Positions 35,743-36,903 of a stretch of DNA of 64,000 bases are shown here, in pieces (within the stretch, counting starts at the first letter, position 1; every line of letters begins with the position of its first letter). The position numbers and the translations under genes were made by a program. The stretch is from NCBI GenBank assembly GCA_004022145.1, contig RCNU01000003.1; one strand, 5' to 3'. The notes under the pieces were generated by a model, which worked only from the letters and a program-made list of their open reading frames with translations, ran no database searches and was not told the DNA's origin. This DNA is from Paecilomyces variotii (taxonomy: Eukaryota).

Positions 35743-35814
35743 CGCATCCCGGTCCTTCTTTTCTTCACCACGACAAGCAGCTGTTTCCCGCCTCTCACCA
35801 CAGCATCCCTCGAG

Positions 35815-36090
35815 GTATGTATTCGTCACATCCTCCCTTCTACCTGCAGCCCCTCAGCTAGCCTGAGAGGAGCAATCATCGCGACCGTTTGAATCGATCG
35901 TGTTACGATGTTCCTCGACGAAGGCACGCTACCGATCGCCGGTCGAGATGATACGCTTCTCTCCTCGCGGCACGGGCTAAAGAACCCTTCCATGAAGGGC
36001 ACTCTTTTCGGCTCGAAGGCTACTGATGGCTGACTCCTTTCGTCCTTGCCCATCATTTCCAATGGTGGGTATCGGGCAGTGAATTTTTAG
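35815..36090 (+). other. 5'-UTR intron of rps22
   Basis: AG|GTATGT donor at 35815, GCTGAC branch site at ~36029-36034, TTTTTAG acceptor at 36090, 50 nt before the ATG. Confidence 0.7.
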
Positions 36091-36140
36091 ATACCTCATT
36101 TCCCGATTCGATTTGAGAATCTCATTCCAACACCGCCAAA

Positions 36141-36903
36141 ATGGTCCGCACTTCCGTCCTCAACGATGCGCTCAACGCCATCAACAACGCCGAGAAGGCT
36201 GGCCGTCGCCAGGTCATGATCCGTCCTTCTTCCAAGGTCATTGGTAAGCTCCCCTGACCGCCACGATGAGAAGAGAGATTTGATACTAACAATTTTCTAG
36301 TCAAGTTCCTCCGCGTCATGCAGAAGCACGGTATGCTAGCACCACTTTGAACAAACACTGTTCCGGCATAGAAGAGGATCCAAGAAGCTGTTTGATCTTC
36401 GCCAGATATTAGACCACATTCGGGATGATAACTAGGCGGCGATTTCGATCTTAACCCACACCACGACGTCCGCCCTTTAAGTTCCCGATATATTGATATC
36501 TTCTGGCGAAGATCTTACAAGCTTCCTGGATCTTAATCTATTCCGGGCAGATTTTAATTCGTCGCCACATTTCTAACTTTCATATCCTTCAGGCTACATT
36601 GGCGAGTTCGAGGAGGTTGACGACCACCGCTCCGGCAAGATCGTCATCCAGCTTAACGGCCGGTAAGTTTCTGCAAGGATTTTGCCATTGAGCTATTTCT
36701 GACGAATTCACAGCCTGAACAAGACCGGTGTCATCAACCCCCGTTACAACGTTCAGCTCCGTGACCTCGAGAAGTGGGTTGTCCAGCTGCTCCCCTCTCG
36801 TCAGTTCGGTTTCATCGTCCTGACTACCTCCGCCGGTATCATGGACCACGAGGAGGCTCGTCGCAAGCACGTTGCTGGCAAGATCCTCGGCTTCTTCTAC
36901 TAG
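36141..36903 (+). CDS. rps22: 40S ribosomal protein S22/S15a (uS8); introns 36244-36300, 36331-36592, 36663-36713
   Basis: [78 protein letters not shown]...LLPSRQFG...GKILGFFY*. Confidence 0.98.

Follow-up and report, generated by a model that had tools for sequence, protein, structure and literature searches.

The H/ACA small nucleolar RNA (snoRNA) snR44 is reported from the coding intron of RPS22B in both Saccharomycotina and Pezizomycotina (PMC4937481). Its Neurospora crassa homolog, ACA1, is intron-encoded and guides 18S-Psi105 and 26S-Psi1037 (PMC2780460), and SnR44 of Fusarium graminearum is described as intronic and dependent on the debranching enzyme Dbr1 (PMC9606315). Intronic H/ACA snoRNAs load their proteins co-transcriptionally and are released by splicing and debranching, after which Rat1/Xrn1 trim them in the 5'-to-3' direction and the exosome trims their 3' ends (PMC10557570). 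Three other systems are relevant to such an intron. First, in humans, intronic snoRNAs form pairs with the introns that host them, and pairing between SNORD2 and EIF4A2 regulates splicing (PMC10324135, PMC11028025). Second, complementary segments near the intron ends form bridging stems in the yeast RPS17B intron, as in other long yeast introns, and bring the 5' splice site closer to the branch point (Rogic et al. 2008, cited in PMC4937481). Third, a stem with two bulge loops in the 5'UTR (5' untranslated region) intron of yeast RPS22B responds to Rps22 and is sufficient for repression (PMC13232506, PMC9068511). Here we analyzed a 64,000-nucleotide (nt) stretch of Paecilomyces variotii DNA (the window; contig RCNU01000003.1 of assembly GCA_004022145.1), in which coding intron 2 of the gene for ribosomal protein uS8 (RPS22/S15a) contains a hairpin of about 190 nt. 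A first-pass annotation had scored this hairpin as a candidate new regulatory RNA, and the main result of our analysis is a correction of that view. The long hairpin is not a separate element but is built from snR44 and an upstream segment antisense to the 3' hairpin of the snoRNA. Features are listed in Table 1.

The region, and then the whole 64-kb window, was scanned with Rfam 15. The only match in 64 kb was RF01262 (snR44, H/ACA snoRNA) at 36418-36572 on the plus strand, which scored 51.8 bits (gathering score, 33) with an E value of 3.5e-7 for the whole window. It covers the full model (positions 1-211 of 211). Folded in isolation, the snoRNA forms two hairpins, and both guide pockets are identical to the Rfam family consensus. 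The hinge motif ATATTGA has A at positions 1, 3, and 7 and not at position 6 as in the H box ANANNA; the Rfam consensus AaAuucA is spaced alike, and some orthologs fit the strict 6-mer. The window shares with snR44 elsewhere the host gene and intron, the hairpin-hinge-hairpin-ACA layout, the guide pockets, and the intronic, splicing-linked biogenesis. Compared with the 211-position model of yeast snR44, the RNA of the window is shorter (153 nt), with apical parts deleted. This is a known snoRNA in a known host intron. The parallel that the first-pass annotation had drawn to yeast RPS22B is relevant. The Rfam search it had proposed did reveal a structured RNA, but this is snR44, which had gone unrecognized. 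Similarly, intron 2 does carry a small RNA, although Rfam and the RNA contig described below identify it as an H/ACA snoRNA and not as the mirtron-like precursor that had been suggested. In the main text of 'The fungal snoRNAome' (PMC5824354), snR44 is not mentioned.

The snoRNA is expressed. Record 8 of X17 is a 153-nt RNA contig that spans exactly 36420-36572 without a differing letter. In another record, a loose end of 23 nontemplated A comes after position 36572; the DNA continues with C. Since the RNA evidence consists of assembled contigs from one metatranscriptome study, the ends are strongly suggested, contigs being no strict proof of RNA ends; at this level, the 3' end of snR44 at 36572 corresponds to the ACA box plus 3 nt. 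Oligo-A tails on pre-snoRNA 3' ends mark the TRAMP/exosome processing route (PMC10557570), and these ends fit both the ACA+3 rule and oligo-adenylated 3' processing intermediates. Contig cover in X17 was next to none over 36340-36419, which includes the 5' arm of the long hairpin, and the snoRNA was covered; since missing cover is not evidence, we did not take this to mean that stable RNA lacks the arm.

We next consider the long hairpin; all folds are thermodynamic predictions. The minimum free energy (MFE) of intron 2 (262 nt) is -88.1 kcal/mol, compared with -52.9 ± 4.5 kcal/mol for 200 dinucleotide shuffles (z -7.9), none of which was as stable. The annotated hairpin of about 190 nt is thus real, and all helices that had been named in it were found in the MFE fold, including the perfect 13-bp helix formed by 36394-36406 and 36502-36514. 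The inner helices TCGGGA/TCCCGA and GGCGG/CCGCC, however, are not parts of an independent element: they are the lower and upper stems of the snoRNA 5' hairpin, which forms the tip of the long hairpin. The snoRNA 3' hairpin supplies the 3' arm (36502-36550) with its 5' strand, its apex, and a portion of its 3' strand. In total, about 130 nt (about two thirds) of the long hairpin belong to the snoRNA, and the 5' arm at 36358-36406 is its sole part outside it. As most of the hairpin is a long-known snoRNA in a long-known host intron, it is not to be counted as a new element. The abnormal length of intron 2, pointed out previously and confirmed by RNA (262 nt against 57 nt and 51 nt for the other uS8 coding introns), is also accounted for: the intron is about 200 nt longer than its neighbors because it hosts snR44. 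An inverted repeat could in principle be a miniature inverted-repeat transposable element (MITE) or another mobile insertion, and a multi-copy MITE had been named as an alternative in the first-pass annotation. The architecture would suit this origin, but the conserved snoRNA itself makes up the 3' arm and the spacer, and blastn detected no second copy of the intron or of its arms in the 64-kb window, only chance 11-16-mers. We regard a mobile insertion as extremely improbable.

Since the 3' hairpin is shared by the long rod and the snoRNA, the pre-mRNA has two mutually exclusive folds. The whole intron folds at -88.1 kcal/mol, and the upstream part and the rest folded apart reach -53.4 kcal/mol together. 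The difference (ddG) of -34.7 kcal/mol is the largest among 32 introns compared (see below); the next values are -15.3 (L040), -14.6 (L008), -12.8 (L017), -11.9 (L011), and -11.2 (L032). When prefixes of increasing length were folded, the arm had formed 13 pairs by position 36514 and 42 pairs by position 36550. Local pairs of the 3' half remained at 0 until 36572, and the lower stem of the 5' hairpin kept 6/6 pairs at every stage. Thermodynamics and order of synthesis thus both favor the rod, in which the 3' hairpin of the snoRNA is unfolded.

A nearly perfect stem of about 46 bp could, as the first-pass annotation had suggested, be a substrate of a double-strand-specific RNase (a homolog of Rnt1/RNase III, or Dicer) and serve precursor or lariat decay or the production of small RNAs. 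Intronic hairpins of yeast RPS22B and RPL18A are described as Rnt1 targets, and Rnt1 provides a splicing-independent route for some yeast intronic snoRNAs (PMC4937481, PMC10557570, PMC13232506). However, the Rnt1 site of yeast RPS22B is reported in the 5'UTR intron and not in the snoRNA intron (PMC13232506). The apex of the stem is the snoRNA 5' hairpin with its 16-nt loop, not the AGNN tetraloop expected of an Rnt1 substrate (rule in PMC10557570). Moreover, a cut would sever the 3' hairpin of the snoRNA, yet an intact RNA contig of snoRNA length exists. Taken together, we consider this role of the stem improbable.

Orthologous loci were collected by a metagenome scan with a pattern of 5'-hairpin positions common to yeast and the window, which yielded 42 loci. 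The uS8 exons adjoin the snoRNA motif at the Gly45 codon in all 42 and do so on both sides in 40; the other two, L031 and L036, are truncated where the locus ends and have exons on one side only. The set comprises 32 distinct introns of 191-372 nt, including that of the window (WIN). The guide-pocket strands of snR44 are invariant in 32/32. RNAalifold returned 19 consensus pairs for the 32 orthologs, of which 13 remain paired despite changes in both partners. The 5' hairpin was recovered in full; of the 3' hairpin, only the base of its upper stem was. Side observations were made in this set. In 26/32 introns, the ACA box lies 0-3 nt before the branch-site motif (e.g., ACA/TAC/TGAC), so that the snoRNA 3' end overlaps or abuts the branch sequence. 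In six lineages, 42-84 nt separate the two. In one clade (L002, L013, L016, L018, and L038), the intron has slid by one base in the Gly45 codon (GG/GT..AG/C instead of G/GT..AG/GC).

For the 5' arm, blastn found no alignable match in any of the 31 distinct orthologs. The DNA matches to the orthologs all begin at intron position 84-91, which is the snoRNA start, and the arm is thus without detectable sequence conservation. This bears on the proposal that the hairpin is a uS8-responsive switch, namely, an rRNA mimic that excess uS8 would bind, thereby preventing its own pre-mRNA from being spliced. Autoregulation of ribosomal proteins via introns is common, and yeast Rps22 represses RPS22B by inhibiting splicing (PMC13232506). 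In yeast, however, the responsive site is located in the 5'UTR intron and is sufficient alone, and deletion of the intron in the coding sequence does not abolish the regulation (PMC13232506, PMC9068511). Unlike a protein-binding site, the part of the hairpin that is not snoRNA has no conserved sequence in the 31 orthologs; it is instead an element in the 5'UTR intron (see below) that has invariant loop residues, in 19/19 aligned sequences. A uS8-binding function of the hairpin is therefore very improbable, and the regulatory interpretation was misplaced by one intron.

Despite the lack of sequence conservation, pairing between an upstream segment and the 3' hairpin recurs. In each of the 32 introns, the best duplex between an upstream segment and the intron's own 3' hairpin was compared with 300 dinucleotide shuffles. 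The duplex of the window has -66.2 kcal/mol, compared with -26.4 ± 4.0 kcal/mol for the shuffles (z -9.9, p 0.003). Significant duplexes were also detected in L011 (z -3.9, p 0.003), L008 (z -3.3, p 0.003), L017 (z -3.05, p 0.003), L042 (z -2.9, p 0.007), L018 (z -2.75, p 0.013), and L025 (z -2.6, p 0.010), and L004 was marginal (z -2.07, p 0.040). With the 5' hairpin as a control target, z was never below -2.7 in any intron. The probability of the canonical lower stem of the 3' hairpin was not used as a measure, since the outermost pairs of the isolated fold are sometimes those of a wrong stem (in L011, a hinge hairpin).

A tree of exon and snoRNA sequences places the window in a clade with L011, L004, L017, and L039 (support 95/89), with L011 as its sister. 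The upstream segments of this clade are all long (67-103 nt). In the window and L011, 23 homologous columns of the 3' hairpin are paired with the arm in the same order and at a similar distance from the 5' splice site. The pairs are the same in 16 of these columns, changed on one side in 3, and changed on both sides in 4. Shuffling of the L011 upstream segment yielded 0.6 ± 3.0 such columns, and none of 100 shuffles reached 23. The identity of the two upstream segments is 0.52 (shuffles, 0.475 ± 0.026), and the two genes differ at 21 of 61 fourfold-degenerate sites (34%). L008, which belongs to another clade, shares 20 paired columns with the window, a number that was also reached by 0/100 shuffles. 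Equivalent arm pairing thus recurs in two other lineages, L011 and L008, although the arms cannot be aligned. The arm pairing was either maintained or repeatedly regained in some lineages, which points to selection on RNA structure.

We therefore favor, with a probability of roughly 60%, the reading that intron 2 is an snR44 host intron with an upstream arm kept by selection in this clade. How such an arm might act can be sketched as follows. The rod would form during transcription, the 5' arm zipping onto the 3' half of the snoRNA, because the arm is transcribed before the 3' half's own partner strand exists. The rod could draw the 5' splice site and the branch site, otherwise separated by a 240-nt interval, to within ~65 nt (about 33 + 31 nt from the stem base). 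It may also keep the ACA-box end, which abuts the branch site, free of the proteins of the small nucleolar ribonucleoprotein (snoRNP) as long as the intron is not excised. Once the intron is spliced out and debranched, the arm would be degraded by 5'-to-3' exonucleases, the 3' half would refold into its hairpin, and the snoRNP would be completed. We think it decidedly unlikely that the arm is a selected timing device, in which a splicing-competent intron fold and an assembly-competent 3' hairpin exclude each other. Such a device would require the uS8 mRNA to be spliced before snR44 can be completed, because the arm would be lost only when the debranched intron is trimmed in the 5'-to-3' direction. 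If true, a single transcript would yield a ribosomal protein and an rRNA-modifying guide in coupled amounts, and this would be the first case of such a snoRNA-host-intron switch involving an H/ACA snoRNA, and also the first in fungi.

Several observations weigh against an arm kept by selection. The outer stem has 46 pairs, 44 Watson-Crick and 2 G.U, and the minus strand of the intron folds at least as stably (-96.2 kcal/mol, z -6.7). For this reason, pair types do not distinguish between an RNA-level structure and a DNA inverted repeat, and the G-U pairs, which had been taken as a sign of selection at the RNA level, do not serve as one. The asymmetry between G.U and A.C and the energies of the two strands had no consistent direction: the plus strand is more stable in L011, L004, and L039, and the minus strand is more stable in the window, L017, and L008. 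There is no strand signal. Further, arm/3'-hairpin complementarity was not significant in 24/32 introns, with z above 0 in several. Among these is L039 of the window's own clade (z -0.4), and the call in L025 is fragile, because its near-copies L005 and L010 were not significant. The register of pairing in L017, L004, and L039 did not go beyond shuffles (12, 17, and 14 of 100, respectively, reached the count), and the whole-intron energy of L011 was only at z -1.3 relative to shuffled upstream segments. Comparison of orthologous introns, which the first-pass annotation had suggested, speaks for the arm insofar as the pairing recurs in L011, with changes on both sides, and in L008, and against it insofar as most introns have no significant duplex and the sequence is not conserved. 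Arm pairing is not a general feature of snR44 host introns.

The proposed effects of the rod on splicing and on the ACA end meet with similar difficulties. The distance between 5' splice site and branch point in MFE folds was compared with that obtained with shuffled upstream segments (25 introns, 60 shuffles each, leaving out the near-duplicates L003, L023, L010, L025, L036, L037, L016, and L038). This comparison gave low values only for the window (0.02) and L020 (0.08), and all introns other than that of the window were not significant. As shuffled sequences close the intron ends too, we make no statistical claim for intron bridging. Masking of the ACA end is no general necessity, because the adjacency of ACA box and branch site in 26/32 introns is mostly found without an arm, and because in L008, which has an arm, the snoRNA and the 3' splice site are 84 nt apart.

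Many of these points would be expected if the antisense arm were neutral, that is, a functionless reverse-complement copy of part of the 3' hairpin that arose by template switching in replication or by inverted duplication and is resolved by exonucleases and helicases. Template switching has been described as a source of reverse-complement copies and as a process that maintains RNA hairpins (10.1101/2021.04.15.439925). A recent copy at the DNA level would show the near-exclusive Watson-Crick pairing and the equally stable minus strand observed here; it would also agree with the ddG of the window being far beyond that of any ortholog and with the many introns without a significant duplex. However, an old copy should have decayed, the region of the arm being otherwise unalignable, and the window and L011 retain 23 collinear columns with 4 changes on both sides despite near-random upstream identity and a 34% difference at fourfold-degenerate sites. 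Recurrence in L008 and L017 would, in addition, need repeated events at the same place. We consider a neutral copy unlikely, although it is to be taken seriously.

An arm kept by selection can be compared with the human snoRNA-host-intron structures (Bergeron et al. 2023, PMC10324135), which are likewise formed in cis, stable, in competition with the snoRNP fold, and close to the branch site. According to that study, upstream and downstream intron partners are about equally common. For the intron of the window, the values obtained in silico are a ddG of -34.7 kcal/mol and a duplex z of -9.9. The described SNORD2-EIF4A2 pairing involves a box C/D snoRNA, a duplex over the branch point, exon skipping with nonsense-mediated decay, and a conserved partner sequence. 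In the window, the snoRNA is of the H/ACA type, the duplex is predicted, its partner sequence is not conserved, and the branch site is outside it: the duplex ends at 36550, and the branch-site motif (36573-36577) follows 23 nt further on. RNA contigs at intron 2 contained only the constitutive splice junction and no alternative exon. As in the RPS17B intron, complementary segments near the ends would fold the middle of a long intron away; whereas the bridging stem of RPS17B is described as otherwise functionless intron sequence, one strand in the window is a functional snoRNA hairpin. In the literature examined, an upstream arm antisense to the 3' hairpin is not described for other snR44 loci. 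Judged from sequence, the arm may be a variant of snoRNA-host-intron pairing that is of moderate interest and is partly supported by comparison. An arm that would sequester half of an H/ACA snoRNA (~35 kcal/mol) and recurs in diverged form in at least two other lineages offers a compact fungal test case for the order of snoRNP assembly and host-intron splicing, so far addressed mainly with human box C/D snoRNAs.

Table 1. Features of the uS8/snR44 locus (window coordinates)
Feature	Position	Strand	Basis or remark
uS8 (RPS22/S15a) gene, start to stop codon	36141-36903	+	Joined exons give a 130-aa uS8; X19 RNA contig
uS8 exons	36141-36243, 36301-36330, 36593-36662, 36714-36903	+	Translation
5'UTR intron, 276 nt	35815-36090	+	RNA joint 35812/36089 in X17; GT..AG
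Structured element in 5'UTR intron	35965-36014	+	Conserved block; candidate uS8 autoregulatory site
Coding intron 2, snoRNA host intron, 262 nt	36331-36592	+	GT..AG; RNA joint 36329/36592 (X19)
5' arm of long hairpin, 49 nt	36358-36406	+	Upstream of snoRNA, antisense to its 3' hairpin
snR44 H/ACA snoRNA (putative mature form)	36420-36572	+	Rfam RF01262 and X17 RNA contig
snR44 5' hairpin	36420-36488	+	Pocket strands TGATAACT (36426-36433) and TTTAAGT (36476-36482)
H-box-like hinge motif ATATTGA	36490-36496	+	A36490, A36492, and A36496 invariant in 32/32
snR44 3' hairpin	36502-36566	+	Pocket CTTACA (36514-36519) and TTTA (36553-36556); 36502-36550 is also the 3' arm of the long hairpin
ACA box	36567-36569	+	Sequence; 3 nt before end of Rfam match and RNA contig (36572)
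Branch-site motif CTAAC	36573-36577	+	Motif only; directly 3' of snoRNA end

The second point of interest is an element in the 5'UTR intron of the uS8 gene, which surfaced through the ortholog search and is conserved in most sampled fungal loci. This intron was absent from the list of the first-pass annotation. It folds at -104.3 kcal/mol (z -4.8) and contains a block that, unlike the antisense arm, is conserved in sequence across loci. In 19 distinct sequences, the core of the element consists of GAGC/GCUC, a 3-bp AGA/UCU helix, an A bulge that faces a CAC bulge, and a stem of CCC/GGG, the top of which is variable and covarying. Among the 19 aligned sequences, 19 columns are invariant, including GGGCACUCU. 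Pairing is possible in 96.3% of cells, and 13 cells have changes on both sides; neither value was reached by any of 500 shuffles. As only 4/13 pairs carry changes on both sides, the support for the element comes mostly from conservation and from the apical stem. The branch-site motif CTGAC (36030-36034) follows 16 nt after the end of the element.

A covariance model (R1) was built from the 19 aligned sequences. Its score in the window is 57.8 bits, and 34/42 loci have a match that lies upstream of the start codon and on the strand of the gene (for example, L033:1257-1310, L005:4734-4791, and L002:1586-1644). The E value is at most 6.5e-7 in the window and in 25 of the 42 loci, and 9 further loci match more weakly (E 0.014-0.082). 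One of the 25, L002 (41 bits), was outside the model-building set. No match was found in 8/42 loci, among which L008, L036, and L038 hold too little upstream sequence to judge. Rfam had no match at 35965-36014, and two screens for structured RNAs in fungi (PMC5640933, PMC8216456) do not name 'RPS22' in their main texts.

This element belongs to the same gene family as the regulatory intronic RNA described for RPS22B in yeast (Granas et al. 2026, PMC13232506; Hooks et al. 2016); the comparison concerns the 5'UTR intron at 35815-36090 and not the long hairpin. Compared by description only, the yeast structure, a stem with two bulge loops, resembles the stem with two bulges (A and CAC) of the window. 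By this analogy, the element is more likely than the hairpin to be the site of uS8 feedback, and uS8 autoregulation would more likely take place there. Its invariant loops could help to define what eukaryotic uS8 recognizes, a question left open in PMC13232506. As a side observation, record 5 of X17 is an unspliced contig of the RNA library (35810-36118) that runs across the 5'UTR intron at a depth of 48, compared with 50 for the spliced joint. It has 4 differing letters, of which 35889 T>G and 36041 C>T are listed, and could stem from intron retention, another strain, or DNA in the library.

The gene model is supported by record 13 of X19, a spliced RNA contig that agrees with the uS8 gene without a differing letter. 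Intron 2 interrupts the Gly45 codon; its splicing is also seen in X17, where two loose ends carry the flanking exon sequence. Another X17 joint, 36439/36590, starts inside the 5' hairpin of the snoRNA, skips 150 nt, and ends shortly before the 3' splice site (depth 18, side 21). It has the ends CG..TT instead of splice-site ends and is probably a library artifact. In X11, the whole stretch lies inside one 23-kb record, which may be DNA in an RNA library or the source of the stretch itself and was not used for expression. Coding intron 1 (36244-36300, 57 nt, after codon 34) is missing in most orthologous loci, in which tblastn is unbroken over residues 1-45, and intron 3 (after codon 68) is common only to the L011, L006, L024, L042, and L029 types. 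Finally, record 18 of X22, a DNA contig of a related organism with 1-19 differing letters in the exons, has 276 unlike letters in place of window positions 36335-36587. Intron 2 of this relative is thus also long and less than 80% alike.

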